Positions 1 to 34,912 of a stretch of DNA of 64,000 bases are shown here, piece by piece. The position numbers and the translations under genes are program-made. Origin of the DNA: Eledone cirrhosa (lineage: Eukaryota); contig OZ024743.1 of the NCBI GenBank assembly GCA_964016885.1, positions 249,612,001 to 249,676,000 of the forward strand, given 5' to 3'. A model generated the notes under the pieces. It had not been told where the DNA came from, searched no databases, and saw only the letters and a list, made by a program, of their open reading frames with translations. Each line of letters begins with the position of its first letter. Positions within the stretch are counted from its first letter, which is position 1.

Positions 1-3000
1 CTTTGCTCACTATAAAAGCTTCACGGCACAGGCATTGCTTTATATCTGGAGATCTCTCTGCACTTGTCGTCACATGGTACCATGGGCCCAGCACTATGTG
101 TCAGTAATTGTCACAAGTGTAGTGTTTGTACCAGAGTTTTCAAGTCACTGGCTGGACTAAAAAGTCACACTCGTTCAGCGCATCGGTAGGGGTTCTCCTA
201 CATGGATATAAAGTAGTGGCCGTACTCGAAAACGAGTTGGCAGCCACCATGTATGTATGTATGTATGTATGTATGTATGTATGTATGTATGTATGTATGT
301 ATGTATGTATGTATGTATGTATGTATGTATGTTATGTATGTTATGTCAGGTCACCAGTTGGTGCTACTGGTAACATGTATCCCAGTACAACCTGTCCCAT
401 GGTCGGGTCGTTGGCGACTAAACTGGCAAACCCACCAAGGTTTCTTGGTGAGGAGGGTGACTTTGGACATCCTGCAGGACTAAAAACAAAACCTGTCAAA
501 GGGCAAAGGAGCTCTTAAGAGTCAATGGCCATCCAAAATCACCGGGAGAGATGACCCCTTAGCCTTTGTCAAGGCAGAATTCTAGGAGAAGGAAAACTCT
601 GATATAACACCTGCAACCCTGATGGTATCCAATGATGTTGACTTGTTCTTCTTTTTGGTAAATATCATCTTGGTTAAGAGAGTGGGACTGGCTTTGTGCA
701 GTGCCTTTGCTCACTATAAAAGCTTCACGGCACAGGCATTGCTTTATATCTGGAGATCTCTCTGCACTTGTCGTCACATGGTACCATGGGCCCAGCACTA
801 TGTGTCAGTAATTGTCACAAGTGTAGTGTTTGTACCAGAGTTTTCAAGTCACTGGCTGGACTAAAAAGTCACACTCGTTCAGCGCATCGGTAGGGGTTCT
901 CCTACATGGATATAAAGTAGTGGCCGTACTCGAAAACGAGTTGGCAGCCACCATGTATGTATGTATGTATGTATGTATGTATGTATGTATGTATGTATGT
1001 ATGTATGTATGTATGTATGTATGTATGTATGTATGTATGTATGTATGTTATGTATGTTATGTCAGGTCACCAGTTGGTGCTACTGGTAACATGTATCCCA
1101 GTACAACCTGTCCCATGGTCGGGTCGTTGGCGACTAAACTGGCAAACCCACCAAGGTTTCTTGGTGAGGAGGGTGACTTTGGACATCCTGCAGGACTAAA
1201 AACAAAACCTGTCAAAGGGCAAAGGAGCTCTTAAGAGTCAATGGCCATCCAAAATCACCGGGAGAGATGACCCCTTAGCCTTTGTCAAGGCAGAATTCTA
1301 GGAGAAGGAAAACTCTGATATAACACCTGCAACCCTGATGGTATCCAATGATGTTGACTTGTTCTTCTTTTTGGTAAATATCATCTTGGTTAAGAGAGTG
1401 GGACTGGCTTTGTGCAGTGCCTTTGCTCACTATAAAAGCTTCACGGCACAGGCATTGCTTTATATCTGGAGATCTCTCTGCACTTGTCGTCACATGGTAC
1501 CATGGGCCCAGCACTATGTGTCAGTAATTGTCACAAGTGTAGTGTTTGTACCAGAGTTTTCAAGTCACTGGCTGGACTAAAAAGTCACACTCGTTCAGCG
1601 CATCGGTAGGGGTTCTCCTACATGGATATAAAGTAGTGGCCGTACTCGAAAACGAGTTGGCAGCCACCATGTATGTATGTATGTATGTATGTATGTATGT
1701 ATGTATGTATGTATGTATGTATGTATGTATGTATGTATGTATGTATGTATGTATGTATGTATGTTATGTATGTTATGTATGTTATGTCAGGTCACCAGTT
1801 GGTGCTACTGGTAACATGTATCCCAGTACAACCTGTCCCATGGTCGGGTCGTTGGCGACTAAACTGGCAAACCCACCAAGGTTTCTTGGTGAGGAGGGTG
1901 ACTTTGGACATCCTGCAGGACTAAAAACAAAACCTGTCAAAGGGCAAAGGAGCTCTTAAGAGTCAATGGCCATCCAAAATCACCGGGAGAGATGACCCCT
2001 TAGCCTTTGTCAAGGCAGAATTCTAGGAGAAGGAAAACTCTGATATAACACCTGCAACCCTGATGGTATCCAATGATGTTGACTTGTTCTTCTTTTTGGT
2101 AAATATCATCTTGGTTAAGAGAGTGGGACTGGCTTTGTGCAGTGCCTTTGCTCACTATAAAAGCTTCACGGCACAGGCATTGCTTTATATCTGGAGATCT
2201 CTCTGCACTTGTCGTCACATGGTACCATGGGCCCAGCACTATGTGTCAGTAATTGTCACAAGTGTAGTGTTTGTACCAGAGTTTTCAAGTCACTGGCTGG
2301 ACTAAAAAGTCACACTCGTTCAGCGCATCGGTAGGGGTTCTCCTACATGGATATAAAGTAGTGGCCGTACTCGAAAACGAGTTGGCAGCCACCATGTATG
2401 TATGTATGTATGTATGTATGTATGTATGTATGTATGTATGTATGTATGTATGTATGTTATGTATGTTATGTCAGGTCACCAGTTGGTGCTACTGGTAACA
2501 TGTATCCCAGTACAACCTGTCCCATGGTCGGGTCGTTGGCGACTAAACTGGCAAACCCACCAAGGTTTCTTGGTGAGGAGGGTGACTTTGGACATCCTGC
2601 AGGACTAAAAACAAAACCTGTCAAAGGGCAAAGGAGCTCTTAAGAGTCAATGGCCATCCAAAATCACCGGGAGAGATGACCCCTTAGCCTTTGTCAAGGC
2701 AGAATTCTAGGAGAAGGAAAACTCTGATATAACACCTGCAACCCTGATGGTATCCAATGATGTTGACTTGTTCTTCTTTTTGGTAAATATCATCTTGGTT
2801 AAGAGAGTGGGACTGGCTTTGTGCAGTGCCTTTGCTCACTATAAAAGCTTCACGGCACAGGCATTGCTTTATATCTGGAGATCTCTCTGCACTTGTCGTC
2901 ACATGGTACCATGGGCCCAGCACTATGTGTCAGTAATTGTCACAAGTGTAGTGTTTGTACCAGAGTTTTCAAGTCACTGGCTGGACTAAAAAGTCACACT

Positions 3001-5918
3001 CGTTCAGCGCATCGGTAGGGGTTCTCCTACATGGATATAAAGTAGTGGCCGTACTCGAAAACGAGTTGGCAGCCACCATGTATGTATGTATGTATGTATG
3101 TATGTATGTATGTATGTATGTATGTATGTATGTATGTATGTATGTATGTATGTATGTATGTATGTATGTATGTTATGTATGTTATGTCAGGTCACCAGTT
3201 GGTGCTACTGGTAACATGTATCCCAGTACAACCTGTCCCATGGTCGGGTCGTTGGCGACTAAACTGGCAAACCCACCAAGGTTTCTTGGTGAGGAGGGTG
3301 ACTTTGGACATCCTGCAGGACTAAAAACAAAACCTGTCAAAGGGCAAAGGAGCTCTTAAGAGTCAATGGCCATCCAAAATCACCGGGAGAGATGACCCCT
3401 TAGCCTTTGTCAAGGCAGAATTCTAGGAGAAGGAAAACTCTGATATAACACCTGCAACCCTGATGGTATCCAATGATGTTGACTTGTTCTTCTTTTTGGT
3501 AAATATCATCTTGGTTAAGAGAGTGGGACTGGCTTTGTGCAGTGCCTTTGCTCACTATAAAAGCTTCACGGCACAGGCATTGCTTTATATCTGGAGATCT
3601 CTCTGCACTTGTCGTCACATGGTACCATGGGCCCAGCACTATGTGTCAGTAATTGTCACAAGTGTAGTGTTTGTACCAGAGTTTTCAAGTCACTGGCTGG
3701 ACTAAAAAGTCACACTCGTTCAGCGCATCGGTAGGGGTTCTCCTACATGGATATAAAGTAGTGGCCGTACTCGAAAACGAGTTGGCAGCCACCATGTATG
3801 TATGTATGTATGTATGTATGTATGTATGTATGTATGTATGTATGTATGTATGTATGTATGTATGTATGTATGTATGTATGTATGTATGTTATGTATGTTA
3901 TGTATGTTATGTCAGGTCACCAGTTGGTGCTACTGGTAACATGTATCCCAGTACAACCTGTCCCATGGTCGGGTCGTTGGCGACTAAACTGGCAAACCCA
4001 CCAAGGTTTCTTGGTGAGGAGGGTGACTTTGGACATCCTGCAGGACTAAAAACAAAACCTGTCAAAGGGCAAAGGAGCTCTTAAGAGTCAATGGCCATCC
4101 AAAATCACCGGGAGAGATGACCCCTTAGCCTTTGTCAAGGCAGAATTCTAGGAGAAGGAAAACTCTGATATAACACCTGCAACCCTGATGGTATCCAATG
4201 ATGTTGACTTGTTCTTCTTTTTGGTAAATATCATCTTGGTTAAGAGAGTGGGACTGGCTTTGTGCAGTGCCTTTGCTCACTATAAAAGCTTCACGGCACA
4301 GGCATTGCTTTATATCTGGAGATCTCTCTGCACTTGTCGTCACATGGTACCATGGGCCCAGCACTATGTGTCAGTAATTGTCACAAGTGTAGTGTTTGTA
4401 CCAGAGTTTTCAAGTCACTGGCTGGACTAAAAAGTCACACTCGTTCAGCGCATCGGTAGGGGTTCTCCTACATGGATATAAAGTAGTGGCCGTACTCGAA
4501 AACGAGTTGGCAGCCACCATGTATGTATGTATGTATGTATGTATGTATGTATGTATGTATGTATGTATGTATGTATGTATGTTATGTATGTTATGTCAGG
4601 TCACCAGTTGGTGCTACTGGTAACATGTATCCCAGTACAACCTGTCCCATGGTCGGGTCGTTGGCGACTAAACTGGCAAACCCACCAAGGTTTCTTGGTG
4701 AGGAGGGTGACTTTGGACATCCTGCAGGACTAAAAACAAAACCTGTCAAAGGGCAAAGGAGCTCTTAAGAGTCAATGGCCATCCAAAATCACCGGGAGAG
4801 ATGACCCCTTAGCCTTTGTCAAGGCAGAATTCTAGGAGAAGGAAAACTCTGATATAACACCTGCAACCCTGATGGTATCCAATGATGTTGACTTGTTCTT
4901 CTTTTTGGTAAATATCATCTTGGTTAAGAGAGTGGGACTGGCTTTGTGCAGTGCCTTTGCTCACTATAAAAGCTTCACGGCACAGGCATTGCTTTATATC
5001 TGGAGATCTCTCTGCACTTGTCGTCACATGGTACCATGGGCCCAGCACTATGTGTCAGTAATTGTCACAAGTGTAGTGTTTGTACCAGAGTTTTCAAGTC
5101 ACTGGCTGGACTAAAAAGTCACACTCGTTCAGCGCATCGGTAGGGGTTCTCCTACATGGATATAAAGTAGTGGCCGTACTCGAAAACGAGTTGGCAGCCA
5201 CCATGTATGTATGTATGTATGTATGTATGTATGTATGTATGTATGTATGTATGTATGTATGTATGTATGTATGTATGTATGTATGTATGTATGTATGTTA
5301 TGTATGTTATGTCAGGTCACCAGTTGGTGCTACTGGTAACATGTATCCCAGTACAACCTGTCCCATGGTCGGGTCGTTGGCGACTAAACTGGCAAACCCA
5401 CCAAGGTTTCTTGGTGAGGAGGGTGACTTTGGACATCCTGCAGGACTAAAAACAAAACCTGTCAAAGGGCAAAGGAGCTCTTAAGAGTCAATGGCCATCC
5501 AAAATCACCGGGAGAGATGACCCCTTAGCCTTTGTCAAGGCAGAATTCTAGGAGAAGGAAAACTCTGATATAACACCTGCAACCCTGATGGTATCCAATG
5601 ATGTTGACTTGTTCTTCTTTTTGGTAAATATCATCTTGGTTAAGAGAGTGGGACTGGCTTTGTGCAGTGCCTTTGCTCACTATAAAAGCTTCACGGCACA
5701 GGCATTGCTTTATATCTGGAGATCTCTCTGCACTTGTCGTCACATGGTACCATGGGCCCAGCACTATGTGTCAGTAATTGTCACAAGTGTAGTGTTTGTA
5801 CCAGAGTTTTCAAGTCACTGGCTGGACTAAAAAGTCACACTCGTTCAGCGCATCGGTAGGGGTTCTCCTACATGGATATAAAGTAGTGGCCGTACTCGAA
5901 AACGAGTTGGCAGCCACC
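1..5918 (+). repeat. Tandem array (~8.4 units, 684-725 bp) of a non-autonomous bipartite RTE-derived element, each unit ending in a (TATG)n tail
   Basis: Identical ORF-track entries recur at 126, 830, 1546, 2271, 2955, 3671, 4396, 5080 and 5796. The unit middle matches the 5' UTR of the RTE LINE at ~7877-8082. The unit end gtggccgtactcgaaaacgagttggcagccaccat matches the LINE 3' end atggccatactcgataacgagggggcagccatcat (~11431-11465). Confidence 0.9.
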
Positions 5919-6611
5919 ATGTATGTATGTATGTATGTATGTATGTATGTATGTATGTATGTATGTATGTATGTATGTATGTATGTATGTATGTATGTAT
6001 GTATGTATGTATGTATGTATGTATGTATGTATGTATGTATGTATGTATGTATGTATGTATGTATGTATGTATGTATGTATGTATGTATGTATGTATGTAT
6101 GTATGTATGTATGTATGTATGTATGTATGTATGTATGTATGTATGTATGTATGTATGTATGTATGTATGTATGTATGTATGTATGTATGTATGTATGTAT
6201 GTATGTATGTATGTATGTATGTATGTATGTATGTATGTATGTATGTATGTATGTATGTATGTATGTATGTATGTATGTATGTATGTATGTATGTATGTAT
6301 GTATGTATGTATGTATGTATGTATGTATGTATGTATGTATGTATGTATGTATGTATGTATGTATGTATGTATGTATGTATGTATGTATGTATGTATGTAT
6401 GTATGTATGTATGTATGTATGTATGTATGTATGTATGTATGTATGTATGTATGTATGTATGTATGTATGTATGTATGTATGTATGTATGTATGTATGTAT
6501 GTATGTATGTATGTATGTATGTATGTATGTATGTATGTATGTATGTATGTATGTATGTATGTATGTATGTATGTATGTATGTATGTATGTATGTATGTAT
6601 GTATGTATGTA
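5919..6611 (+). repeat. Pure (TATG)n microsatellite, ~690 bp, tail of the last array unit
   Basis: Directly visible; the MYVC/HTYI ORFs are artefacts of it. Confidence 0.97.
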
Positions 6612-8334: not shown

Positions 8335-9255
8335 GGCTGCTGGAACGTACGGACGCTGCTTGACAGGGATTCCTTGGAGCGTCCTGAACGAAGGACCGCT
8401 CTTGTTGCAAAGGAGCTTCGACGTTACGATCTTGACATCGTGGCTTTATCTGAGACGAGGTTAGCTGGAGATGGTCATCTTACGGAATTTTGTGGAGAAT
8501 ATACATTCTTCTGGAAAGGAAGAGATGAAGGAACCAGAAGAGAGGCTGGGGTAGGATTTGCTGTTAAGACTGTACTTGTCAATAAATTAGAAGAATTCCC
8601 AGTAGGGATTAGTGAGCGTCTTATGTCCATGAGAGTTCCGCTGGACAGAGGAAGATATGCTACCCTGGTGAGTGTGTATGCTCCAACTACGAATTCTGTC
8701 GATGAAGAAAAACTGTCCTTTTACCATGCCTTGAAAGGTGTTCTAAGAAATATCCCTCAGGCAGACAAAGTCATCGTGGTTGGTGACTTTAATGCTAGAG
8801 TGGGTAGGGATTTTAACACATGGAATGTAATCGGAAGGCATGGGGTGGGAAAGTGTAACAGCAATGGTATGCTCCTGCTGCAGATGTGTGAGGAGCTGGA
8901 TCTGTGTGTTACCAACACCATGTTCCAACAAAAGAACAAATTCAAGACCACATGGATGCATCCTGCATCTAAGGAATGGCATCTTTTGGACTACGTCCTA
9001 GTCAGGATGCGTGACAGACAGGATGTGCAGTGTGTTCGTGTTCTTCGTGGAGCTGAGTGCTGGACGGACCACCGCCTAGTACGCGCAAAAGTGAAACTAA
9101 TCACCAAACGTAAAATCCGGGCTCCTGGTGTTACCCTGCCCAAAAGATTGAATGCTGCTCGTCTTAAGGATAAAAATGTGAAGAGGACATTGGAAGAAGA
9201 GATGCAGGCTGCAGATCTTGGTGAGGATTGGCCGACCCTTAAAAAGTCGGTTTAA
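8335..9255 (+). pseudogene. RTE LINE AP-endonuclease domain
   Basis: ORF 8374-9255 with canonical APE motifs; an in-frame stop separates it from the RT portion. Confidence 0.9.
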
Positions 9256-9279
9256 GATGTAGGCAGGCGTGTTCTGGGA

Positions 9280-10344
9280 TTGGTGCAGAGAAAACATCAG
9301 GACTGGTTTAATGAGAATGATGTACATATAGAAGACTTGTTGGCTGATAAGAGGCGTGCTCTGTCACGCTACTTGACGGCAAAACCACAGGAGAGGAATA
9401 CGTTGCATGAGGAGCTCAGGGATGTAAAATCACGTGTTAGGCGGAGTCTTTCTCAGATGAAGGATCAGTGGTGGAGTGAGAAGGCTGGTGAGATACAAAC
9501 TGCGTCTGATTCCAATAACACAAAGCTGTTGTACAGTCTCTTGCGTGAGGTTTATGGACCGTCTTCTTCTCTGGTGACACCGCTTCGCAGCAAGGATGGC
9601 AAAGAACTTCTTCGTGACTCACAGGGAATTCTACGAAGGTGGCGAGAGCACTTTGATGATCTTTTGAATCAGCCGTCTGTCGTCAGTGAAGATTTCCTCA
9701 ATCTCATTCCAGAAAGTCCTGTGAAAGTAGCTCTCGCAGAACCTCCGACGCTTGTGGAGGTTGCAGTGGCTATTTCGAAGCTGAACAGTGGAAGATCTCC
9801 ATGTATGGATGGCATACATGCTGAGCTCCTACAATATGGTGGTGAGAGACTCCTGCAACATCTGCACTCTTTGTTTGGAAGGATATGGGCTAATGAATCC
9901 GTACCTGAGGACTGGAGAGATGCAGTAATGGTGGTCTTGTACAAGGGAAAGGGTAACAGGAATGATTGTGGGAACTACAGAGGTATATCATTGCTTTCTG
10001 TCGTAAGGAAAGTTTTATGTAGGGTGCTTCTGGACCGTCTGCTGACACACATTGCAGATTGTGTTCTTCCTGAAAGTCAATCTGGTTTTCGTGCTGGACG
10101 CGGCACTACTGATATGATCTTCTCAGCTAGACAGCTCCAGGAGAAGTGCATGGAACAAGGCTTGGATCTGTATCAGGTTTTTGTCGATCTGACAAAGGCT
10201 TTCGATACTGTCAACAGAGAGGCATTATGGAAGGTTCTCCAGAAACTTGGTTGCCCTGATAAGTTCCTTGCTTTAGTTAGGTCTTTCCATGACGACATGA
10301 AGGCTTGGGTTAATGTTGGAGGTAACATGTCGACACCACCTTAA
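9280..10344 (+). pseudogene. RTE LINE reverse transcriptase, N-terminal half; catalytic YADD region deleted
   Basis: RT motifs present up to FHDDMKAWV, then deletion/frameshift. Confidence 0.9.
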
Positions 10345-10746
10345 GCAATTGGAGCGTTTCCATCAGATGTGTCTCAGACGGATCCATGGCGTTCACTGGA
10401 GGGACCACATCAGTGATGTCGAGATTTTGGAAAGCTCTATGTGTGACAGTATAGAAGCTCTTGTGCTTAAGCAACGACTCCGTTGGAGTGGTCACCTTGC
10501 CAGGATGAAGGATTCTAGAATACCAAAACAACTCTTTTATGGAGAGTTGGTTAAAGGAAAACAACCGCCACATAAACCAAAAAAGAGGTATAAGGATTCC
10601 TTGAAAGCCTCTCTGAAAGACGCTAACATCTCTGCTGATACATGGGAAAATATTGCTGCTGATCGTAATAAATGGAGAAAGACTGTATATGAGGGAAAGT
10701 TGCCTTTGAGGCATCTCGAATCGCACACGAGAAAGTAAAGCGGGAT

Positions 10747-11103
10747 GTGAGGAAGGGCATTGCTGTTGCACTTCCAGACGGCGAGGGTCCTCCTATGGTG
10801 CTGACATGCAGCGTATGTGCGAGACTCTGCCTAAGCAAAGCTGAACTCGAAAGTCATCTTCGCAGTCATAAAGTAAGACCAGTAGTTGACTACCAGGCTG
10901 CTGTTGGAGATGCTACTCATCATGCTTGCCAAACATGTGGTAGAGAATGTAAATCAGCAGGAGGGCTCAAGCGACATGCAAAAGTACACGAACTCCAACC
11001 ACAGCCGACTATTCCCAGTGAATGTTTTGGTTGCCGACTCTGTGCAAGACATTGTAGATCATTGGCTGGGCTAAAAAGCCACATTCGATCGCAGCACTGT
11101 TAG
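10747..11103 (+). pseudogene. RTE LINE C-terminus with three C2H2 zinc fingers
   Basis: CSVC..HLRSH, CQTC..HAKVH, CRLC..HIRSQH. Confidence 0.85.
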
Positions 11104-12270: not shown

Positions 12271-12456
12271 CACACACACATATATATATATACACACACA
12301 CACACATACACATATATATACATATATACACACATACACACACACATATATATATACACACATACACCATACATACATATATCTGCATTGTATTGAGTAC
12401 CTTACTTACTGTGGTTACCTCCGATTCAACACGGAATAACGTACGTATATATATAT

Positions 12457-15217
12457 ATTTAATACAATAACAGAGAAAGCTTTAAGCTAAACTCTGACAG
12501 GCTACCATCTCACTCAACAAACATTAGGATATACGTTAGTATAATCCCAATTTTGTGTTTGGGGTGCTAACTATATGTATTTTGTGGAAAGCCAGTTGTA
12601 TTATTTTATATGAGATATAATTAAAATTAAAATATATCTCTCTTTCCAAACAATTGTTTCATTATAAGTTTTCTACAAGTTGGGAGAATGTTTCCGGTTT
12701 ATGTAGAAGCCTACATATTTTTCTGTAAGAACACATGCAGGTGGGCACTTATAAATCATCAGTGGAAGCCCATCAAACTTTGATATGAGAAAAAATTTCT
12801 TACCGCAGTTATTTTTCGTGTCAGCTAAGTTGTCCCTTCACGCATCATAATGACCGCCAAATTTGAAATTCCAGCAGTCTTTAGACTGAGGAATTTCACA
12901 GCGTCACGAAGCGGAAAAGGGAGGCAATCGCGAATCACAAGAAAGTAAAATAATATACACCTGGGTTAATTAGTTTTAAAAAAAAACAATATTAATCCTG
13001 CGCGTTAAGAACTCAATTAATTTAAAAAAAATAAATGTATGCATGTATTAATTACACACGCATATAGATATTTTCTTAGGCTAAAAACAGAGAAGTGATA
13101 CCTAAATAACAAACAATATCTCATAACAGTAATAAATACGGAAAGTTACGTTTAAAAGGTATCTGGAAATATAATTCTCTGGCCAAATCAAGAGTAAAAT
13201 ATTTAATACAATAAAAGAGAAAGCTTTAAGCTAAACTCTGACTGGCTACCATCTCACTCAACAAACATTAGGATATACGTTAGTATAATCCCAATTTTGT
13301 GTTTGGGGTGCTAACTATATGTATTTTGTGGAAAGCCAGTTGTATTATTTTATATGAGATATAATTAAAATTAAAATATATCTCTCTTTCCAAACAATTG
13401 TTTCATTATAAGTTATCTACAAGTTGGGAGAATGTTTCCGGTTTATGTAGAAGCCTACATATTTTTCTGTAAGAACACATGCAGGTGGGTACTTATAAAT
13501 CATCAGTGGAAGCCCATCAAACTTTGATATAAGAAAAGATTTCTTACCGCAGTTATTTTTCGTGTCAGCTAAGTTGTCCCTTCACGCATCATAATGACCG
13601 CCAAATTTGAAATTCCAGCAGTATTTAGACTGAGAATTTCACAGCGTCACGAAGCGGAAAAGGGAGGCAATCGCGAATCACAAGAAAGTAAAATAATATA
13701 CACCTGGGTTAATTATTTAAAAAAAAAAACAATATTAATCCTGCGTGTTAAGAACTCAATTAATTTTAAAAAAATAAATGTATGCATGTATTAATTACAC
13801 ACGCATATAGATATTTTCTTAGGCTAAAAACAGAGAAGTGATACCTAAATAACAAACAATATCTCATAACAGTAATAAATACGGAAAGTTACGTTTAAAA
13901 GGTATCTGGAAATATAATTCTCTGGCCAAATCAAGAGTAAAATATTTAATACAATAAAAGAGAAAGCTTTAAGCTAAACTCTGACTGGCTACCATCTCAC
14001 TCAACAAACATTAGGATATACGTTAGTATAATCCCAATTTTGTGTTTGGGGTGCTAACTATATGTATTTTGTGGAAAGCCAGTTGTATTATTTTATATGA
14101 GATATAATTAAAATTAAAATATATCTCTCTTTCCAAACAATTGTTTCATTATAAGTTATCTACAAGTTGGGAGAATGTTTCCGGTTTATGTAGAAGCCTA
14201 CATATTTTTCTGTAAGAACACATGCAGGTGGGTACTTATAAATCATCAGTGGAAGCCCATCAAACTTTGATATAAGAAAAGATTTCTTACCGCAGTTATT
14301 TTTCGTGTCAGCTAAGTTGTCCCTTCACGCATCATAATGACCGCCAAATTTGAAATTCCAGCAGTATTTAGACTGAGAATTTCACAGCGTCACGAAGCGG
14401 AAAAGGGAGGCAATCGCGAATCACAAGAAAGTAAAATAATATACACCTGGGTTAATTATTTAAAAAAAAAAACAATATTAATCCTGCGTGTTAAGAACTC
14501 AATTAATTTTAAAAAAATAAATGTATGCATGTATTAATTACACACGCATATAGATATTTTCTTAGGCTAAAAACAGAGAAGTGATACCTAAATAACAAAC
14601 AATATCTCATAACAGTAATAAATACGGAAAGTTACGTTTAAAAGGTATCTGGAAATATAATTCTCTGGCCAAATCAAGAGTAAAATATTTAATACAATAA
14701 CAGAGAAAGCTTTAAGCTAAACTCTGACTGGCTACCATCTCACTCAACAAACATTAGGATATACGTTAGTATAATCCCAATTTTGTGTTTGGGTGCTAAC
14801 TATATGTATTTTATGGAAAGCCAGTTGTATTATTTTATATGAGATATAATTAAAATTAAAATATATCTCTCTTTCCAAACAATTGTTTCATTATAAGTTT
14901 TCTACAAGTTGGGAGAATGTTTCCGGTTTATGTAGAAGCCTACATATTTTTCTGTAAGAACACATGCAGGTGGGCACTTATAAATTATCAGTGGAAGCCC
15001 ATCAAACTTTGATATAAGAAAAAATTTCTTACCGCAGTTATTTTTCGTGTCAGCTAAGTTGTCCCTTCACGCATCATAATGACCGCCAAATTTGAAATTC
15101 CAGCAGTCTTTAGACTGAGGAATTTCACAGCGTCACGAAGCGGAAAAGGGAGGCAATTGCGAATCACAAGAAAGTAAAATAATATACACCTGGGTTAATT
15201 AGTTTCTTTTTAAAACA

Positions 15218-15220
<3 letters not shown>
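12457..15220 (-). repeat. Tandem array of ~743 bp unit (3.7 copies) with one hammerhead per unit, flanked by (TA)n
   Basis: Unit starts at 12457, 13201, 13944 and 14687; TA tracts on both sides. Confidence 0.92.
12644..12767 (-). ncRNA. Type I hammerhead ribozyme with ~100 nt stem II (copy 1 of 4 in the 743 bp array)
   Basis: Minus strand reads TTCCA-CTGATGA-T-TTATAAG...CTTATAA-T-GAAA-C-AATT-GTT|TGGAA. Palindromic stem III ACAATTGT; GUU triplet. Confidence 0.75.
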
Positions 15221-15254
<34 letters not shown>

Positions 15255-15277
15255 ATTATATATATATATATTATATA

Positions 15278-15329
<52 letters not shown>

Positions 15330-15331
<2 letters not shown>

Positions 15332-17527
15332 CAAGGTTTAGCAAATAATGAAAAAGTTTCAAAATAAATTTTAAAAAATTGACTTTACCTACTATAGTTA
15401 CCTTTACCGATCGGTTTCGAATCCCAAAAATAAACGGAGACCATACGGCCTTCGTTGCAAAGAAAGATTCTCGTCAGAAGGTTCTTTTCATTCGAAGAAT
15501 ATAAAATTCTTGAATTTAAATTACGAACTAGCGCTATCCAAAACTGTTCCTGAGATGAGAGTGAATGAAGTGGAATCAATTTTTTCAAGGGCCGAAGTAA
15601 AGATAGAGGCAGAGGGAGGTAGGTCAAACCGGCCGCAACTATCACTAGCAGCAGTCGGAACAACCCAATTTGTCTCTCAACAATAGCGGAGAGTAGTAAT
15701 AATAGGATATGTGTTCCTTCACGCATAAGGCGCTAAGGGACGCATGTATTGTCCAACCAAATGCCAATGTGGTTCAATGGCAGGTTAATAAATTAACGAG
15801 CCAGAACATATATAAACAAGGTTTAGCAAATAATGAAAAAGTTTCAAAATAAATTTTAAAAAATTGACTTTACCTACTATAGTTACCTTTACCGATCGGT
15901 TTCGAATCCCAAAAATAAACGGAGACCATACGGCCTTCGTTGCAAAGAAAGATTCTCGTCAGAAGGTTCTTTTCATTCGAAGAATATAAAATTCTTGAAT
16001 TTAAATTACGAACTAGCGCTATCCAAAACTGTTCCTGAGATGAGAGTGAATGAAGTGGAATCAATTTTTTCAAGGGCCGAAGTAAAGATAGAGGCAGAGG
16101 GAGGTAGGTCAAACCGGCCGCAACTATCACTAGCAGCAGTCGGAACAACCCAATTTGTCTCTCAACAATAGCGGAGAGTAGTAATAATAGGATATGTGTT
16201 CCTTCACGCATAAGGCGCTAAGGGACGCATGTATTGTCCAACCAAATGCCAATGTGGTTCAATGGCAGGTTAATAAATTAACGAGCCAGAACATATATAA
16301 ACAAGGTTTAGCAAATAATGAAAAAGTTTCAAAATAAATTTTAAAAAATTGACTTTACCTACTATAGTTACCTTTACCGATCGGTTTCGAATCCCAAAAA
16401 TAAACGGAGACCATACGGCCTTCGTTGCAAAGAAAGATTCTCGTCAGAAGGTTCTTTTCATTCGAAGAATATAAAATTCTTGAATTTAAATTACGAACTA
16501 GCGCTATCCAAAACTGTTCCTGAGATGAGAGTGAATGAAGTGGAATCAATTTTTTCAAGGGCCGAAGTAAAGATAGAGGCAGAGGGAGGTAGGTCAAACC
16601 GGCCGCAACTATCACTAGCAGCAGTCGGAACAACCCAATTTGTCTCTCAACAATAGCGGAGAGTAGTAATAATAGGATATGTGTTCCTTCACGCATAAGG
16701 CGCTAAGGGACGCATGTATTGTCCAACCAAATGCCAATGTGGTTCAATGGCAGGTTAATAAATTAACGAGCCAGAACATATATAAACAAGGTTTAGCAAA
16801 TAATGAAAAAGTTTCAAAATAAATTTTAAAAAATTGACTTTACCTACTATAGTTACCTTTACCGATCGGTTTCGAATCCCAAAAATAAACGGAGACCATA
16901 CGGCCTTCGTTGCAAAGAAAGATTCTCGTCAGAAGGTTCTTTTCATTCGAAGAATATAAAATTCTTGAATTTAAATTACGAACTAGCGCTATCCAAAACT
17001 GTTCCTGAGATGAGAGTGAATGAAGTGGAATCAATTTTTTCAAGGGCCGAAGTAAAGATAGAGGCAGAGGGAGGTAGGTCAAACCGGCCGCAACTATCAC
17101 TAGCAGCAGTCGGAACAACCCAATTTGTCTCTCAACAATAGCGGAGAGTAGTAATAATAGGATATGTGTTCCTTCACGCATAAGGCGCTAAGGGACGCAT
17201 GTATTGTCCAACCAAATGCCAATGTGGTTCAATGGCAGGTTAATAAATTAACGAGCCAGAACATATATAGACAAGGTTTAGCAAATAATGAAAAAGTTTC
17301 AAAATAAATTTTAAAAAATTGACTTTACCTACTATAGTTACCTTTACCGATCGGTTTCGAATCCCAAAAATAAACGGAGACCATACGGCCTTCGTTGCAA
17401 AGAAAGATTCTCGTCAGAAGGTTCTTTTCATTCGAAGAATATAAAATTCTTGAATTTAAATTACGAACTAGCGCTATCCAAAACTGTTCCTGAGATGAGA
17501 GTGAATGAAGTGGAATCAATTTTTTCA
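15330..17527 (-). repeat. Left (antisense) arm of inverted 485 bp hammerhead concatemer, ~4.5 units
   Basis: Period 485 (ORF track 15385, 15870, 16355, 16840, 17325). Begins directly after (TA)n. Hammerheads on the minus strand at 15400-15482 and every 485 bp. Confidence 0.95.
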
Positions 17528-19575
17528 TATATGTTCTGGCTCGTTAATTTATTAACCTGCCATTGAACCACATTGGCATTTGGTTGGACAATACATGCGT
17601 CCCTTAGCGCCTTATGCGTGAAGGAACACATATCCTATTATTACTACTCTCCGCTATTGTTGAGAGACAAATTGGGTTGTTCCGACTGCTGCTAGTGATA
17701 GTTGCGGCCGGTTTGACCTACCTCCCTCTGCCTCTATCTTTACTTCGGCCCTTGAAAAAATTGATTCCACTTCATTCACTCTCATCTCAGGAACAGTTTT
17801 GGATAGCGCTAGTTCGTAATTTAAATTCAAGAATTTTATATTCTTCGAATGAAAAGAACCTTCTGACGAGAATCTTTCTTTGCAACGAAGGCCGTATGGT
17901 CTCCGTTTATTTTTGGGATTCGAAACCGATCGGTAAAGGTAACTATAGTAGGTAAAGTCAATTTTTTAAAATTTATTTTGAAACTTTTTCATTATTTGCT
18001 AAACCTTGTTTATATATGTTCTGGCTCGTTAATTTATTAACCTGCCATTGAACCACATTGGCATTTGGTTGGACAATACATGCGTCCCTTAGCGCCTTAT
18101 GCGTGAAGGAACACATATCCTATTATTACTACTCTCCGCTATTGTTGAGAGACAAATTGGGTTGTTCCGACTGCTGCTAGTGATAGTTGCGGCCGGTTTG
18201 ACCTACCTCCCTCTGCCTCTATCTTTACTTCGGCCCTTGAAAAAATTGATTCCACTTCATTCACTCTCATCTCAGGAACAGTTTTGGATAGCGCTAGTTC
18301 GTAATTTAAATTCAAGAATTTTATATTCTTCGAATGAAAAGAACCTTCTGACGAGAATCTTTCTTTGCAACGAAGGCCGTATGGTCTCCGTTTATTTTTG
18401 GGATTCGAAACCGATCGGTAAAGGTAACTATAGTAGGTAAAGTCAATTTTTTAAAATTTATTTTGAAACTTTTTCATTATTTGCTAAACCTTGTTTATAT
18501 ATGTTCTGGCTCGTTAATTTATTAACCTGCCATTGAACCACATTGGCATTTGGTTGGACAATACATGCGTCCCTTAGCGCCTTATGCGTGAAGGAACACA
18601 TATCCTATTATTACTACTCTCCGCTATTGTTGAGAGACAAATTGGGTTGTTCCGACTGCTGCTAGTGATAGTTGCGGCCGGTTTGACCTACCTCCCTCTG
18701 CCTCTATCTTTACTTCGGCCCTTGAAAAAATTGATTCCACTTCATTCACTCTCATCTCAGGAACAGTTTTGGATAGCGCTAGTTCGTAATTTAAATTCAA
18801 GAATTTTATATTCTTCGAATGAAAAGAACCTTCTGACGAGAATCTTTCTTTGCAACGAAGGCCGTATGGTCTCCGTTTACTTTTGGGATTCGAAACCGAT
18901 CGGTAAAGGTAACTATAGTAGGTAAAGTCAATTTTTTAAAATTTATTTTGAAACTTTTTCATTATCTGCTAAACCTTGTTTATATATGTTCTGGCTCGTT
19001 AACTTATTAACCTGCCATTGAACCACATTGGCATTTGGTTGGACAATACATGCGTCCCTTAGCGCCTTATGCGTGAAGGAACACATATCCTATTATTACT
19101 ACTCTCCGCTATTGTTGAGAGACAAATTGGGTTGTTCCGACTGCTGCTAGTGATAGTTGCGGCCGGTTTGACCTACCTCCCTCTGCCTCTATCTTTACTT
19201 CGGCCCTTGAAAAAATTGATTCCACTTCATTCACTCTCATCTCAGGAACAGTTTTGGATAGCGCTAGTTCGTAATTTAAATTCAAGAATTTTATATTCTT
19301 CGAATGAAAAGAACCTTCTGACGAGAATCTTTCTTTGCAACGAAGGCCGTATGGTCTCCGTTTATTTTTGGGATTCGAAACCGATCGGTAAAGGTAACTA
19401 TAGTAGGTAAAGTCAATTTTTTAAAATTTATTTTGAAACTTTTTCATTATTTGCTAAACCTTGTTTATATATGTTCTGGCTCGTTAATTTATTAACCTGC
19501 CATTGAACCACATTGGCATTTGGTTGGACAATACATGCGTCCCTTAGCGCCTTATGCGTGAAGGAACACATATCC

Positions 19576-19580
<5 letters not shown>
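17527..19580 (+). repeat. Right (sense) arm of inverted 485 bp hammerhead concatemer, ~4.2 units
   Basis: Reverse complement of the left-arm unit (ORF track 17614, 18099, 18584, 19069); ends in (TA)n. Confidence 0.95.
17858..17940 (+). ncRNA. Type I hammerhead ribozyme (representative of 9 copies in the 485 bp array)
   Basis: ACCTT-CTGACGA-GAATCT...GGATTC-GAAA-C-CGATCG-GTA|AAGGT. Palindromic stem III ACCGATCGGT; predicted cleavage after 17935. Confidence 0.85.
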
Positions 19581-19614
<34 letters not shown>

Positions 19615-19749
19615 CTAAATATATATATATATATAAATCTAAATATATATATATATATATATATAAATCTAAATATATATATATATATAAATCTAAATAT
19701 ATATATATATATATATAAATCTAAATATATATATATATATATATAAATC

Positions 19750-19796
<47 letters not shown>

Positions 19797-19853
19797 CTAA
19801 ATATATATATATATATATATAAATCTAAATATATATATATATATATATAAATC

Positions 19854-19895
<42 letters not shown>

Positions 19896-19900
19896 TACAT
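19581..19900. repeat. (TA)n tract punctuated by repeated AAATCTAA
   Basis: Directly visible compound microsatellite/minisatellite. Confidence 0.9.
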
Positions 19901-20084
19901 ACATACATATATATATAAATATACATACATATATATATATAAATATACATACATATAAATCTACATACATACATATATACATACATACATTTACGTATGT
20001 ATATAGCTATGCATTTATACATTTGTATATATACATGCATTTATATTTAAGTGTGTAAGGTTATATATATATATATATATATTT

Positions 20085-20330
20085 ATGCAGTGTGACAAGA
20101 AGCTTGTTTCCCAACCACATATTTCCGGGTTCAGTCCCACTGCCCAGGCCGACCAAAGCCCTGTGAGTGGATTTGATAGATCGAAACTAAAAAAAGCCCG
20201 TCGTATATATGTATATATGTCTGTGTGTGTCTTTGCGTTTGTGTTTGCCCTCCCACCAATCCTTGTTGGTTTGTTGACGTCCCCATAACATACGAAGGTG
20301 GTGCTCCAGCATGGCGTAGTCCAGAGACAG
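20085..20330 (+). mobile_element. Degenerate SINE-like fragment (second family)
   Basis: B-box-like ccgggttcagtccc followed by ggccgaccaaagcc.tgtgagtggatttg; family assignment from memory only. Confidence 0.4.
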
Positions 20331-23406: not shown

Positions 23407-25194
23407 ATGGCCTCAGCAATGAAGAAAAAATGTAGGCAGTACAGCGTTGATTACTTACGGTTCGGATTCATCCCATCGCCGTCGAACCACCTGTCACCCA
23501 TGTGTTTAATTTGCAAGGAGTCCTTTTCGAATGAGGCGATGAAGCCATCGCGTTTCAGTAGACACTTGGAGGTGAGGCACCCCGATAAGAGATATAAAGA
23601 TTTAGCATACTTTCAGTCTCTTAGGGACCAATTCCAGAAAACAACACTAATTTCTTCTGCCTTTTCAAAAGTTGAAGCTTCAAATGTTGATGGACTTGTC
23701 GCATCTTACAATATTGCCAACATAATCGCAAAGTGCGGCAAGCCCCATTCCTTGTGTGAAACATTGGTAGTCCCTGTCATCTCAGAAGTTCTTTCAACAG
23801 TACTACGACAGAACCCCTTAAATACCTTGAAATGTATTCCGTTGAGTAACGACTCAATAAGGAGACGCATCGACGAAATGGCGGAAAATGTTGAACAACA
23901 ATTATGCAACATCTTGAAATCGACACAATTTGCTTTGCAACTTGATGAAAGCACACTTTCCGGGAATCAGTCCTTACTACTGGGATACGTGCGATTTTCC
24001 CACCAAAACGAAATGCACGAGGAGCTTCTCTTCACTCTGAATCTAGCCACAGATACTAAAGGTGCCACGATCTTTGAATCTGTCAAGGGATACCTCGAAG
24101 TAAAAGAGATACCTCTTAACAATATTGTATCATGTGCTACGGACGGCGCAAGAGCAATGGTCGGCCAACATAAGGGTTTCGTCTCTCTTCTGACGAGGGA
24201 AAATCCATCTGTATTTGCTGTTCATTGTGTCATTCATCGACAACACTTGGCTACGAAGAAACTCAGCGAGCCGCTGAGCAAGTCTTTGCAGGTAGTCATT
24301 GATGTCATCAATTATATCAAACGCCATGCCCTCAATGAACGAATTTTCCGGCAACTGTGCGAAGATAATGACGAAGAATTCGTCGAGTTGCTTCTTCATA
24401 CTGAAGTGAGGTGGCTTTCAAAGGGCAAGTGCCTTACTCGCTTCTTTAAACTGTTCGACTCTATCATTGAGTTTCTTCGAGGACGCAACACAGAACTATA
24501 TAAAAAAAACCTCGATGTGAGGCAAGACTGTGCCTACCTCGCCGACATCTTTGACAAATGCAATAGTCTCATTATGGCTTTGCAGGGGGAGAAGATCACC
24601 TTGTTTAAAGCAAGGAATGCTGTGAAAATATTCCTGGCCAAATTGAAAGTCATCGAAAGGAATCTTTGTCGACGGGAATTCTATAATTTTCCTAGTGTCG
24701 CCAATGTTTCAAACATTGTAAGCGATGACCAACTGCAAATTTATACCGCGCACCTCCGTGCACTACAAGACAACACGAGAGAACGGTTTGTCGACCTTTT
24801 GCAGATGGACATCCCAATGTGGATAGCAGATCCCTTCATAGCCAACGTCGATGATCTCGACGTTAAATTTCAGGAAGAATTAATTGAACTTCAGACAGAT
24901 GACATTATCAAAAGGAAATTTTCCAAAATAGGTGAACCCCTTTTTTGGATGCAAGAGGAAATTCAGCGACGATTTCCACTTCTACATGCAGAGGCTAAGA
25001 GATTTGCTTTGCCTTTTCCTAGCTCATACTTAGTCGAGAGGGGGTTTGGCGTTGTTTCCAGACTGCATAGTAAGGCTCGCAACCGCTAGAATGTGATTGC
25101 ACGTGGAGATCTCCGGCTACAGCTCACAAAAATCCAGCCTGACGTCAAAGAGTTAGCTAAACTCCATGACCATGAAGCTGAAGGGTCCCATTGA
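23407..25194 (+). pseudogene. hAT (Buster/Charlie, ZBED5/SCAND3-like) transposase with one premature stop at 25087
   Basis: BED-like CLIC..H..H, LQLDEST, CATDGA, HCVIHRQHL, HTEVRWLSKG and SSYLVERGF. Read-through gives ..RGDLRLQLTKIQPDVKELAKLHDHEAEGSH* ending at 25194. Confidence 0.9.
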
Positions 25195-29552: not shown

Positions 29553-31075
29553 GTACAAGAGGGCTTCAAAAAGTTCGTGGAAAAAGGACAGTTGGAGAAA
29601 ACGATTTAAGTAATATTTATTTTTCAGCATATGCTCCATCTAGATTAATACACTTCTGCAAGCGCTGATACCAACTTTTCAGTCTGTAGCGCTCTCTAGA
29701 CAGGAAGTAGCTGGAGTTACTTCCCGTTGAGGTTCGAGAAACTTCTTTGTGACTTCCGTCCAGGGAACTATAAAGGAGAGAGCTGAAAGCTATCTCCCTC
29801 TCTTTTCATCTTTTGGTTGCCTGGCCTTTCGGCCAGGCGCGTTCCGCCGAAGGTATACCCTCTCGCTTCCTGACTGTGAAAAGGTAAACAACTAACTTTC
29901 TTTCGTCGTGAAATCACTAGCCAACATGTAACACAACAACTTAACCACGGTCTGGCAACATTTCCGCCAGTAGACCGTGCCTCCTGAATTCCTTAATTCG
30001 TTGTTTCATCTCTCTTGGCATGTCAGCTATTCAGCTCTACTCAGCTCAATCTTTGTAAATAAATATTGTACATACAACCCAGTGTCATGTTATAAGTCCA
30101 TATGTGTAAAACTGAGGTCTATGTGATTAAAACAATGTCAAAACAGCTTTACATCTTCAACTGATGGAAAGGGTACATTTCAATGATTTTTTTTCAGGTT
30201 TGTAAGTCGGGTGAAGATAAATCGGTACTGTAAGGTAGGTCTCAGATGATTTCCCATCGAAGTGTCTGCCGAAGACCGTGAGCAGGCGCATTGTCGTGGT
30301 TGAAGAGGACGCGCCGACGCAGCTTTCCCGGGCGTTTTTCCGCGATTTCTTCGCAAGTTTTCTCAAAACACCTGCATAATATGCAGCTGTAATTGTTCTC
30401 TTGTTCTCGAGGAAGTCAACTAACAAAATCCCCTCTGCATCATAGAAGACGGTGAACATGATCTTCACTCTTGAACGCTCGGATTTTGCCTTGACTGGCC
30501 TAATTCCACTCCCGGGCAGCCACTGCTTCGAATGAGTTTTGTCTTCGGGATCGTACTGGTAGAGCTACGTTTCATCCCCAGTGACAATTCCCTGCAGAAA
30601 AGCTTCAGGGTGTTCATCCCACTTATTCAAAATTTCCATCAAAAGATCTGCTGATCTGGGCGCGACAGCTTTGGGACCCATCGAGCGAAAACCCTGATCA
30701 GCTCCAAACTCTCCATCAGAATTGTGTGCGCAGAACCCACGGGGACGTTGAGTGTGTCAGCTACTGATTCGGTGATTATTCGCCTTTTCAAAAAGGTCGC
30801 AAACAGCATCGATATTTTCCACACAGACTGACATGGAGGGCTTGACACTGCGATGATCATTTTCAACCTCATCTCTTCAACTTTTCAAATGACACCCATT
30901 TGTAGGTAGTTGATTTCTTTGGGGCATTGTCTCCATAAACTTGCTTCAGGGCGTCAATGATTTGGCTCCTCTTCCACCCTAGCTTCGTCGTGAATTTGAT
31001 GTTTGTGCTGGCCTCAATTTTGATAGAGCGTTGTTGCTCGAGTGGGTGTTCACTCCCGACTCGCGGCGCCGCAAA
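29553..31075 (-). pseudogene. Decayed mariner transposase element interrupted by an LTR-like insert
   Basis: IKFTTKLG..IIDALKQVYGDNAPKKSTTYKW, ARWVPKL, VTGDET, KIMFTVFYDAEGILLVDFLE, HDNA. TIR-like end tacaagagggcttcaaaaagt at ~29554. Confidence 0.88.
29685..30075 (+). mobile_element. LTR-like insertion within the mariner element
   Basis: Starts TGT, shares a block with 25308-25548, and interrupts the mariner 3' coding sequence. Confidence 0.5.
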
Positions 31076-31077
31076 AA

Positions 31078-33900
31078 CAGATGCACACACACGCGCACAA
31101 CATTGCGCACACAAATGTACACACGCATGCGCACACACATGGGCAGACACATGCAGACACACGTGCGCCCGCATGCGCACACAATCACGCACACGCATGC
31201 GCACACAAATATGAACACAAACACACACAGAAACACGTACACATACACACACTTGCACATACACTCGAATTCACACGTACAATCACAAGCACACGAAAAT
31301 CACTACACACGCGCACAAAAGCGTTCAAAACTGCGCTCACAAAAGGTCACACAAATGTGAACCCAAAATCGTGCACAAAACGCAGAACCTTGCGCATAAA
31401 TATACACACACAAAAGAACACACATAAACAAACACACGCAAACACGCTCACAGAAATGCGCACAAATACACTCACACTAATGAACAAATACGGGCGCACA
31501 CACGCACACTCACAAACACACACATGCGCGCTCAGAATTGCGCATACACGCGCGCATACAAATACGCACAGAAACGCACTACGCACACACACACGTGCAT
31601 ACACACCTGCACAAACACGTGCACACACAAGCGCACAAAATCGTGCACACACGCACACACACGTTCTCAAAAACACAACCACACACGTGAACAAAGAATT
31701 GTGCAAAAACTCGCGTACAGAAAGCGCACACAAGCGAGTACACAAACGCACACATGCACACATACACATGCGCATCCGAACGTGAACATAAACGTACAGT
31801 CACGCGCACAAACACGCATACACAACCGCGCATATATGCGCATACACCTGTATATACACGCACAGACATATAAAAAAAACGCGCACACAAGTGCACAAAC
31901 GCACCAAACACGTGCACAAACGCGCGTACACACATGTACACACAAACGTGCACAGACACGCACATACAAGTCCACACACAAGCACATTCAACCGTAAATA
32001 TACATGCACACACATCTACACACACAATGGTACACAACCATTCTGATACGCACATGCACAAACACGCACACAATGATACACACAAATGAGCACACAAACG
32101 TGCTCTCAACCATGCACACGCACACACTCGTGCATACATACGCGCAAACACAAGTGCACACACATGCAATCACACGCGCTTACCCACACACATACATACG
32201 CACACAGGCGCACACACACGAGCAGACACATAGACAAACACTGGCGTACATGCACACACGACGGCAAATGCGCACACACAAGTGCACATAGTCACACACA
32301 CATACACGTACACCAGCACACATTCAAGCACACATGCGCATACAATGCAAACACAACTGCACACCCTCACGCACAAACAGACGCACACAATCGCGCACAC
32401 TCACACAAACATGCAAGCGCACAGACCACGCATACACATGCGCTCACACACGCATGCTGACACCCATTTGCACATACTCGCTCCTAGACATGCGCACACA
32501 ATCAAGCACAAAAAGCCGTATACAAGGTGCACACTGATGCTTAAACACGCGTACACAATCGCGCACACACATGTACATACACGCACACACATGACACAAA
32601 CATACGCGCTTACACACGAGGAAACACACGCACACATACGCATACACACGTGGAAAACAAGGCGCTCATACACACGCCTCCATGCACGCACTCACACACG
32701 CACACATTCATACACACGCATACACACACACACATACATATACACACACCACCGCACACACACGCTTGTGTGCAGCTGTATGTGTATGTACGCGCATCTC
32801 TCAGTTCGCGCGTGTTTGCGAGTGTGTGCGTGCATGTGTATATGTGTCGTTGTGTGGGTGGATGTGTACGAGTATGTGCATTTGTGTACACTTTTGTGTA
32901 CGCATTTGTGTGAGCGTGTATGTGCACAATTATATGCATGAGTGTGTGCGCATATATGTGCATGTGCGCGTTTATATGCATGTGTGCGCGAGTATTAATG
33001 AGCGGGTATTCGCGCGTGTATGTGCGTAATTACTGTTTGGCGCGTATGAGAGCATGGGTGCGCAGGTAAATGTGCGTGTGTGTGATTGTTTGTGTGTGTG
33101 TGCGCGTGTATGTGCGCGAGTGTGTGCTCATGTGTTTGGGAGCGTGTGTGCGCCTGTGAGAGCAGATGTGTGTGTCTGCCTTTGTGTGCACGTGTACTTG
33201 CGCGTATTTGCGTTTGCATGTGTTCCTGTTTGTGCGCAAGTCTGTTTGACCGTTTGTGTGCCATTATTTTGTGCGTGTGTGTGTGTGTGTGCCTGTGTGT
33301 GTGCTTGTGTGTGTGGGTGTGCGTGCATGCGTGTGCTTTTACGTGCGCATATGTGTGTACAAGTATGTATACGCGTGTGTGTGCATGTGTATGCGTGACT
33401 GTGGTCGCGTGTGTATGTGCACCTGTGTTTGCAAGTTTGTGTGCACGTCTTTTTGCATTCGTGTGTGTGATCGCGTGGGATTGCATCTGTGTGCGTATGT
33501 GTGTGCCCGTTTGTGTGCGCTTTTGTGCGTGCGTTTATGTGCGCTTTTGTGTGAAAGTTTGTGCACTTTTATGTGCTTATTTTGTGCGCGTGTGAGTTTG
33601 CGATTTTGTGCGCTTGTGATTGCTTCTGTGTGTGAGTGATTGTGCATGTGTGTGTGCGTGTATGTTGTCGCTAGTGTATTTGTGTGTGTGTGTGCACTTA
33701 AGTGTGTGTGTCTGGGCGCTTGTGTATATGTGGATGTGCGTGCACATGTGTGTTTATGAACGTGTGTTTGTGCGTATGTGTGTGCATATGTTTTTGTGTA
33801 TGTAATTGCTCGCTCTTTTGTGTGTGCGCGCGTGTGTGAGCATGTGCGGACGCACATGCACACACACACACGCACATACACATAAACACACATCAGCATA
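31078..33900. repeat. Cryptic degenerate CA tract switching to TG polarity at ~32763
   Basis: CA-rich 31078-32762, TG-rich 32763-33840. Confidence 0.9.
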
Positions 33901-34554: not shown

Positions 34555-34912
34555 ACACACACACACACACACACACTTATATATATATGCATATATATAT
34601 ATGTATATATATATAGTTTTGCGAGGTTTTTTATATGAAATCGTGTGTCGAAACAGATATTGTTATATTTGGGGAGGGTCATATTTGCGTAATATTGCCA
34701 GAATTAATAACAGAACACACTCACTGTTTGGTTGGTTTTCGCTTCTCGCTGTCTTTTATATATATATATCTGCGATCTAACTTACTCGGTAAGTTAGATC
34801 GCAGATATATATATATAGACTTACCTACGACACTGACTACCTAGACAGCCATGACCTTAGATGTTTCTGCCCTAGTAGACCTATAAGAGGTAGACCCCCC
34901 ACCATAACCTCA

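Follow-up and report, generated by a model that had tools for sequence, protein, structure and literature searches.

In the present study, a window of 64,000 nucleotides from Eledone cirrhosa (NCBI GenBank assembly GCA_964016885.1, contig OZ024743.1, positions 249,612,001 to 249,676,000 of the forward strand) was analyzed, and two tandem arrays of a 485-bp unit were observed head to head between (TA)n microsatellites, at 15322-17527 and 17527-19581 of the window as called by Tandem Repeats Finder (TRF). On the strength of its motifs, the array is a retrozyme without long terminal repeats (a non-LTR retrozyme), and it appears to be a young insertion. The fit between the ends of its two arms suggests, without proving, that both arms were copied from one RNA, and we give slightly better than an even chance to the reading in which both ends of a cut TA tract were primed on a single retrozyme RNA molecule. 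Setting phase 0 of the unit at the first base of the right arm (17527), the parts of the locus are as follows.

15218-15329, no strand: left (TA)n target tract (TRF period 2, 58.5 copies), with a pairing potential of 7 nt with unit phases 484-5.
15330-17527, minus strand: left arm, 4.5 units, antisense on the plus strand, with five hammerheads and one variant (17270).
17526-17532, plus strand: inner junction, a 1-nt microhomology at 17527 and, after it, the 6-nt alternating AT tract of the unit (phases 0-5).
17527-19581, plus strand: right arm, 4.2 units, RNA sense, with four hammerheads and three variants (18880, 18966, 19003).
19579-20086, no strand: right (TA)n target tract, continuing into interrupted TA-rich repeats.

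The phase fit at the seam is the central observation. The right arm ends at phase 114; in reverse complement, the left arm begins at phase 226/227 and reaches the TA flank at phase 483 (15330). The initial annotation had claimed that the two arms fit in phase, and this was borne out to within one base: flipping 15330-17525 onto 17526-19581 restores the exact 485 register through 8.77 units; the seam (17525/17526) carries a single T-to-C substitution, and the flipped concatemer of 4252 nt has five mismatches to the unit. The flip that had been proposed (15330-17527 joined to 17527-19580) likewise gives the expected length of about 8.8 units (8.77), but not the seamless 485 period, since the lag across the join is 484 rather than 485 (484/484 matches at lag 484 versus 158/484 at lag 485) and phase 484 is therefore missing. 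None of 1050 breakpoint pairs gave a perfect flip, the best reaching 309/310. The join is thus confirmed to be continuous to within one base and is not strictly seamless. Under uniform phases, an offset of at most 1 has a probability of 3/485 (0.6%), or 1.3-2.5% when taken over both this array and the 467-bp array described below. The seam is also the sole site of the unit at which a (TA)n end can pair over 7 nt (rank 1/485 for TA pairing), and the left primer site is predicted to be single-stranded at the 99th percentile, both 485 primer sites lying at the 99th-100th percentile. The microhomology at the inner junction becomes 2 nt if 17526 is taken as a substituted phase 484. It is unlikely that this phase match arose by blind chance, yet it is compatible with more than one mechanism. 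The units of both arms are identical except for four singletons, and no variant is common to arms or units, so that the array offers no template marker for a single-RNA origin. Variant 17270 lies at phase 483 and the seam substitution at 17526, if so read, at phase 484; both are T-to-C changes in the same U3 tract, and these two phases may be a pause or error site of the reverse transcriptase (RT). In the right TA flank, a short interruption recurs about nine times between 19611 and 19890 with variable TA lengths, suggestive of slippage or reiterative synthesis.

The identity of the element follows from its ribozymes. A motif scan of the whole window for type I hammerheads returned 27 matches, 9 in the 485 array and 18 in a second array with a 467-bp unit, and stem III is palindromic in all of them. 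One representative of each is listed.

17858-17940, plus strand: one of the 9 type I hammerheads of the 485-bp array, with an intact core and a predicted cut after 17935 (phase 408).
47816-47860, plus strand: one of the 18 type I hammerheads of the 467-bp array, with a predicted cut after 47853.

Both arrays are assigned to the non-LTR retrozymes because their tandem units each hold a type I hammerhead, the feature that defines this class, for which mobilization by Penelope-like elements (PLEs) is supposed (10.64898/2026.07.22.740005; PMC7229834; PMC7761336). The unit sizes of 485 and 467 bp lie within one published range of 51-972 bp (10.64898/2026.07.22.740005) and above another of 170-400 nt (PMC7229834). 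The 485 hammerhead comprises a 5-bp stem I, a 7-bp stem II with a 38-nt insert and a 10-nt palindromic stem III. These calls rest on our own motif scan, to which a match of Rfam Hammerhead_HH9 is added for the 467 motif (E 6.6e-8; at 37.7 bits it falls short of the gathering score, 52). In shuffled units, the scan matched 1 of 2000 (485) and 0 of 2000 (467). At Rfam gathering thresholds no match was obtained in the whole window, and at E<=5 there was none in the 485 unit, no ribozyme in a neighboring 743-bp tandem array and no hammerhead in the 3' region of the PLE described below. Compared with shuffles in local folding, the 485 hammerhead is not more stable (z -0.78), and the 467 motif gave z -2.06. 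Each 485 unit has one 113-codon open reading frame (ORF) with no match in Pfam, the database to which the search was confined, and in the 467 unit no ORF reaches 100 codons. Nothing that resembles an LTR is visible in the arrays, an inspection that did not include a tRNA-complement test. Comparing the 485 and 467 units with each other, with the 743-bp unit, with the remaining window and with the PLE 3' end revealed no convincing homology. Within the stem II insert of the 485 unit (17863-17890), a 7-nt core and a 9-nt word recur at the same spacing, perhaps a relic of an older ribozyme.

The 467-bp array is the second inverted locus of the window.

41239-47613, minus strand: left arm of the 467-bp retrozyme array, 13.6 units, with its inner end (47611) at phase 242 and its outer end at phase 76.
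47612-49952, plus strand: right arm of the 467-bp array, 5 units and 6 nt, without variants, overlapping the left arm's priming phase by 77 nt.

No phase match was found here at the unit length: the best value at lag 467 was 109/300, and a perfect match at lag 544 corresponds to a 77-nt duplication. The inner end of the left arm (47611-47613) coincides with the first base after the predicted hammerhead cut when the 2-nt microhomology is assigned to the right arm. Such an end would be the expected trace of an RT running off a 5' end made by the ribozyme, and it is arguably a stronger sign of an RNA template than the 485 seam; it also lends indirect support to self-cleavage of the RNA. Two such hits among eight end comparisons have a probability of ~0.001, the eight having been chosen after the data were seen. 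The left inner end of the 485 array does not lie at the hammerhead cut (end at phase 226/227, cut at phase 408). The right 467 arm begins and ends at nearly the same phase, which may be chance (~3%, estimated by hand). At 40030-41210, a MITE-like (miniature inverted-repeat transposable element) sequence with long terminal inverted repeats (51 nt at 100%, 103 nt at 98%) ends directly at the TA flank of this array.

A third locus with the same inverted layout, ~15 kb from the 485 array, is a PLE.

34616-36885, plus strand: 5'-truncated, TA-flanked Penelope-like element with an ORF at 34913-36364 (RT, Cys linker, GIY-YIG), a candidate of the helper type.

Its inverted 3'-end copy (34657-34790) comprises 134 nt identical to 36752-36885, a one-sided tail of 41 nt lies at 34616-34656, both outer ends are 41 nt apart on the RNA, and the inner junction is a fold-back hairpin at ~34760-34817. 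The RT, the CX2-5CxxC linker and, at the C terminus, a GIY-YIG with CCHH are present, the linker and the conserved C/H columns being seen in the translation and in a 54-sequence alignment; the linker and the CCHH motif have been defined for Neptune-clade PLEs (PMC8557442). Nematis shares the Neptune-type linker, and this element is a candidate member of the Neptune clade. The best named relative of the protein is from Octopus vulgaris (65% identity), which by itself hints at a cephalopod source. The ORF clusters in Atlas with RT and GIY-YIG at 0.94, whereas in Pfam it did not rise above the cut-off (RVT_1 E 0.015). The fold of the GIY-YIG domain matched I-TevI (probability 1.00, E 0.024); since Foldseek gave no match at E<=0.001, the call leans on the motifs and Atlas as well. 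The co-occurrence of retrozymes with PLEs is thus seen within a single window. A TA bias at the PLE inner junction was not used as evidence, the residues of homologues leaving the TA run not clearly ORF-derived. The 3' region of the element (36637-36670) has a hammerhead-like core with a 6-bp stem II and a poor stem I; the same 7-nt core is the one repeated in the stem II insert of the 485 unit. Scanning a prokaryotic genome collection with the PLE alignment produced 28 pattern matches, none of which was confirmed.

The hammerheads also reveal the RNA strand, independently of the junction. In both the 485 and 467 arrays, sense sequence makes up the right arm and antisense sequence the left, so that each flank reads into antisense and the RNA 5' ends are central, which is the polarity that two-ended priming requires. 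All three insertions with a known sense strand (485, 467, PLE) are head to head; under inversion at the DNA level, this polarity would be expected for both arrays in one case out of four. Reverse transcriptases produce U-to-C and G-to-A changes as wobble errors. When read on the RNA strand, the unit variants are four U-to-C changes in the 485 array and two G-to-A changes in the 467 array, i.e. six of six of the RT type; they occur in both arm orientations and never at CpG (p ~0.03, post hoc). Hammerhead strand and variant spectrum thus agree with an inverted 5' segment in which both 485 arms were templated by sense RNA.

Herein, we propose a course of events for the 485 insertion. A PLE enzyme with RT and GIY-YIG domains would make the insertion in a (TA)n tract after cutting both strands. 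The bottom strand of the right tract (19579-20086) would be the first primer, and this right-hand end would prime at phase ~114 and copy 4.2 units. The top-strand 3' end of the left tract (15218-15329) would be the second primer, pairing with the UA tract of the unit (phases 484-5) on the same RNA and copying 4.5 units. The second cDNA would begin at the base next to the stop of the first, and the two cDNA 3' ends would be joined via 1-2 nt. This step might be twin priming proper, with a slightly displacing collision, or an exchange of primers, the 3' end of the first cDNA giving way to the identical genomic TA end. The initial annotation had read the array as the signature of one cDNA stopped at a second primer. 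The geometry is as predicted, and the hammerhead polarity, the rank-1 TA primer site and the 1-2 nt microhomology agree with twin priming, but the word signature is too strong: with the seam on the unit's longest TA tract, a DNA inversion or two TA-guided events would yield the same sequence, and the presence of the entire 6-nt primer-pairing tract in the first cDNA suits an exchange of primers no less than a collision.

Several templates might be considered for this step. A monomer circle with the primer already bound at phases 484-5 is disfavored, because the first RT would have been blocked after 115 nt and not after 4.2 units. The template would thus be a linear transcript that spans at least 8.8 units and keeps nine hammerheads uncut, or else a circle whose copying passed to the second end during the fifth lap. 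We slightly prefer the linear uncleaved multimer: the left arm of the 467 array stops precisely at a 5' end cut by the hammerhead, and a circle wrapped by cDNA should not fold its ribozyme. As an alternative, the 467 end might come from a circle in which an abnormal ligation bond stopped the RT. A linear monomer copied without jumps is rejected, since no indel is seen at any of the 9 and 18 places where the arms pass through the cut site. At AT-rich DNA, purified PLE protein cuts the two strands and extends both; it initiates internally, is predicted to form a dimer and uses mostly uncleaved RNA (PMC11167929), and eight of nine Xenopus retrozyme dimers remained uncleaved in vitro (10.64898/2026.07.22.740005). 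When the offsets of L1 twin-priming junctions are applied (66% deletions with a median of 14.5 bp and 17% duplications with a median of 22 bp; 10.1101/2024.08.27.596794), the 485 locus yields a likelihood ratio of ~27 against independent phases; in this calculation we took the remaining 17% of junctions as flush and assumed an exponential tail. A wider generalization, which we put forward tentatively and rather doubt, is that a PLE enzyme writes the retrozyme arrays of animals into (TA)n, with both break ends priming one RNA, a hand-over at a TA microhomology and a long, mostly uncleaved multimer or a multi-lap circle as template in place of a monomer circle copied from a single primer, and that this two-primer step, not antisense self-priming, explains PLE inversions.

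A number of results weigh against the copying of both arms from one RNA. The refuting condition named in the initial annotation, a lack of phase relationship at other loci, partly applies, one of three loci being in phase overall: the breakpoints are near-contiguous at the 485 locus (offset 0-1 nt), whereas the 467 array is out of phase (right inner end at phase 0, left outer end at phase 76, a 77-nt duplication) and the PLE lacks ~370 codons between its arms, a gap of ~1.1 kb. The same L1 offsets, which need not hold for PLEs, give a likelihood ratio of 0.22 for the 467 array and of ~6 for both arrays combined. The target end is complementary to the internal priming site over 7 nt at the 485 locus (with a one-base slip or substitution) and over only 1 nt at the 467 locus, where the primer sites pair 1 nt with TA and their accessibility reaches the 55th and 69th percentile. 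Should TA tracts attract both ends, the 485 match would have a chance of 0.6-19% (weights of 0.5-1.0 per paired base), and the coincidence of the seam with the longest TA tract of the unit raises the null to as much as 9-19% in TA-weighted models; a fitted weight of 0.87 gives 8.6%, a circular estimate in that the 485 site is one of its four data points. Target-site duplications (TSDs) are unreadable in (TA)n, and the arms may have grown or shrunk since the insertion; in the neighboring 743-bp array, the pattern of variants suggests such a change. The best comparison of either retrozyme unit with the non-coding end of the PLE reached E 0.28, so that this PLE is only a candidate for the type of helper.

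Other explanations were weighed against the same observations. Two cDNAs might have been copied from different RNAs, by a PLE dimer at once or in successive insertions, both being drawn to the longest TA tract. This is unlikely, although it would account for a seam at the rank-1 TA site (the TA-weighted null being 0.6-19%), for the lack of a phase match at two of the three loci and for the PLE outer ends, whose spacing of 41 nt on the RNA matches the two start sites of PLEs (PMC11167929). In the concerted form, the end of the left cDNA has no TA tract that would favor joining at phase 0. In the successive form, the 5' end of the first insertion would be joined to (TA)n by microhomology and the second primed beside it, so that the same family must strike the same microsatellite and leave exactly the six TA bases of the unit; moreover, the units of both arms are identical save the four singletons. 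More improbable still is an insertion in one direction whose left 2.2 kb was later inverted as DNA, the breakpoints being the (TA)n flank and the self-complementary AT tract within a unit. Such an inversion yields exactly the sequence of the 485 locus, since single flips restore the 485 register with one substitution and the AT tract stands on both sides, and palindromes flanked by or centered on TA (60141-60261, 60365-60522) show that TA tracts accompany fold-back rearrangements in this window. Nevertheless, extra events would be needed for the 77-nt duplication of the 467 array and for the tail, hairpin and missing ORF portion of the PLE, either polarity is predicted while three of three are head to head, head-to-head inversion is a known product of PLE insertion (PMC8557442; PMC3846280), and little time was available in an array as young as this one (4 variants in ~4250 nt).

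With a single primer, the first cDNA might instead have folded back or switched to an antisense template, the second arm being copied from it. The true hairpin at the PLE inner junction is what the model of PMC3846280 describes. For the arrays we regard this as distinctly improbable, since the 485 and 467 junctions are not mirror-symmetric, the 485 arms exceed the fold-back limits if their lengths are original (2198 versus 1829; 2055 versus 1939), variant 46491 of the 467 left arm is not carried into the right arm, and the outer-inner phase fit would be left without a reason. Assembly is difficult where units are nearly identical and TA tracts long, and a mis-oriented or chimeric contig at the TA tracts would also produce inverted arms. 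The likelihood of such an artefact seems very small: fold-backs of reads are mirror-symmetric while the junctions here show offsets of 226 and 241 nt, both the polarity and the end at the hammerhead cut have biological specificity, and the left flank is unlike the right.

Twin priming of L1 was reportedly described by Ostertag and Kazazian in 2001. As in L1 twin priming, a second target end pairs internally on the RNA, the 5' part is inverted and the cDNA ends are joined by short microhomology with near-contiguous breakpoints. The 485 locus differs from L1 in having no poly(A), a first primer that is also internal, a (TA)n target, a periodic ribozyme RNA as template, so that contiguity is known only modulo 485, and a PLE RT as the likely enzyme instead of ORF2p. 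The right arm ends within a unit at (TA)n with no poly(A), and the other L1 hallmark, a TSD, is unreadable there, which lowers the case for an L1 product and not that for a mechanism working like twin priming. EN+ (endonuclease-bearing) PLEs such as Neptune, Naiad and Poseidon resemble the present loci in the inverted 5'-truncated copy head to head at the 5' end, the (TA)n bias and the unreadable TSDs (PMC8557442, PMC3846280, PMC11167929), and also in internal initiation with extension of both strands; the element at 34616-36885 has the textbook form of these PLEs, including the one-sided tail. Insertions of PLEs often carry an inverted 5'-truncated copy and prefer microsatellites (PMC8557442), and their inversions, mostly head to head, have been explained by antisense self-priming (PMC3846280). 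In contrast, no RT is encoded by the arrays, the palindrome basic to the self-priming model is absent from their junctions, and their two start sites are 116 and 71 nt apart, compared with 30-40 nt in EN+ PLEs. With metazoan non-LTR retrozymes they share tandem units each with a type I hammerhead, the palindromic helix III and co-occurring PLEs (PMC7229834; 10.64898/2026.07.22.740005; PMC7761336), whereas head-to-head inverted arms and TA-tract targeting, both present here, are not described in the text consulted. The 38-nt stem II insert of the 485 hammerhead is a further difference from known retrozymes, and Rfam misses the motif. In the published retrozyme model, RT on a monomeric circle produces tandem cDNA; the junctions seen here speak rather for a template that is long and linear or for a primer exchange during synthesis. 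In the literature searched, which took in few subscription papers, a description of the inverted head-to-head retrozyme form was not found.

The remaining window is animal-like DNA rich in microsatellites and retroelements. The 743-bp tandem array (12455-15221) has 3.7 copies that are ~98% identical, is TA-flanked and uninverted, and abuts the left flank of the 485 array; its units 2 and 3 are nearly identical, and no hammerhead was found in it. Near-perfect palindromes at 60141-60261 (120/121) and 60365-60522 (156/158) lie beside TA tracts and look like fold-back duplications, the latter being centered on a TA run and leading into a fragment resembling a long interspersed nuclear element (LINE) that ends in (GAT)n. 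At 1-6611, tandem segments of ~600 nt are each followed by (ATGT)n with a three-unit higher-order period of 2125 bp; by eye, this array resembles a LINE 3' end with a zinc finger, and a dispersed copy (94% identical) lies at 62502-63079. Broken LINE ORFs were observed at 8374-11103 (endonuclease, RT, C2H2 zinc fingers) and 51130-55320 (RT and zf-RVT). An open ORF of 560 codons at 23407-25089, with weak BED-finger and DUF659 matches, is presumably a hAT-type transposase. A degenerate CA-rich tract at 31031-33900, turning GT-rich near 32770, appears to be an old low-complexity inverted arrangement (~64% identity).

The formation of tandem and inverted structures by PLEs and their targeting of microsatellites have been named as an open problem (PMC8557442), and the route by which retrozyme RNA integrates has only been proposed (PMC7229834). 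The 485 locus is one suggestive locus, and its value lies mainly in providing the basis for a cheap genome-wide test. Each head-to-head retrozyme array offers four phase-readable ends and a strand marker, and many such loci in one genome could separate copying from the same template, copying from two templates, self-priming and later inversion from sequence alone; such loci could also tell circular from linear templates. If the wider generalization is true, periodic arrays would be built-in rulers that record the two-primer step.

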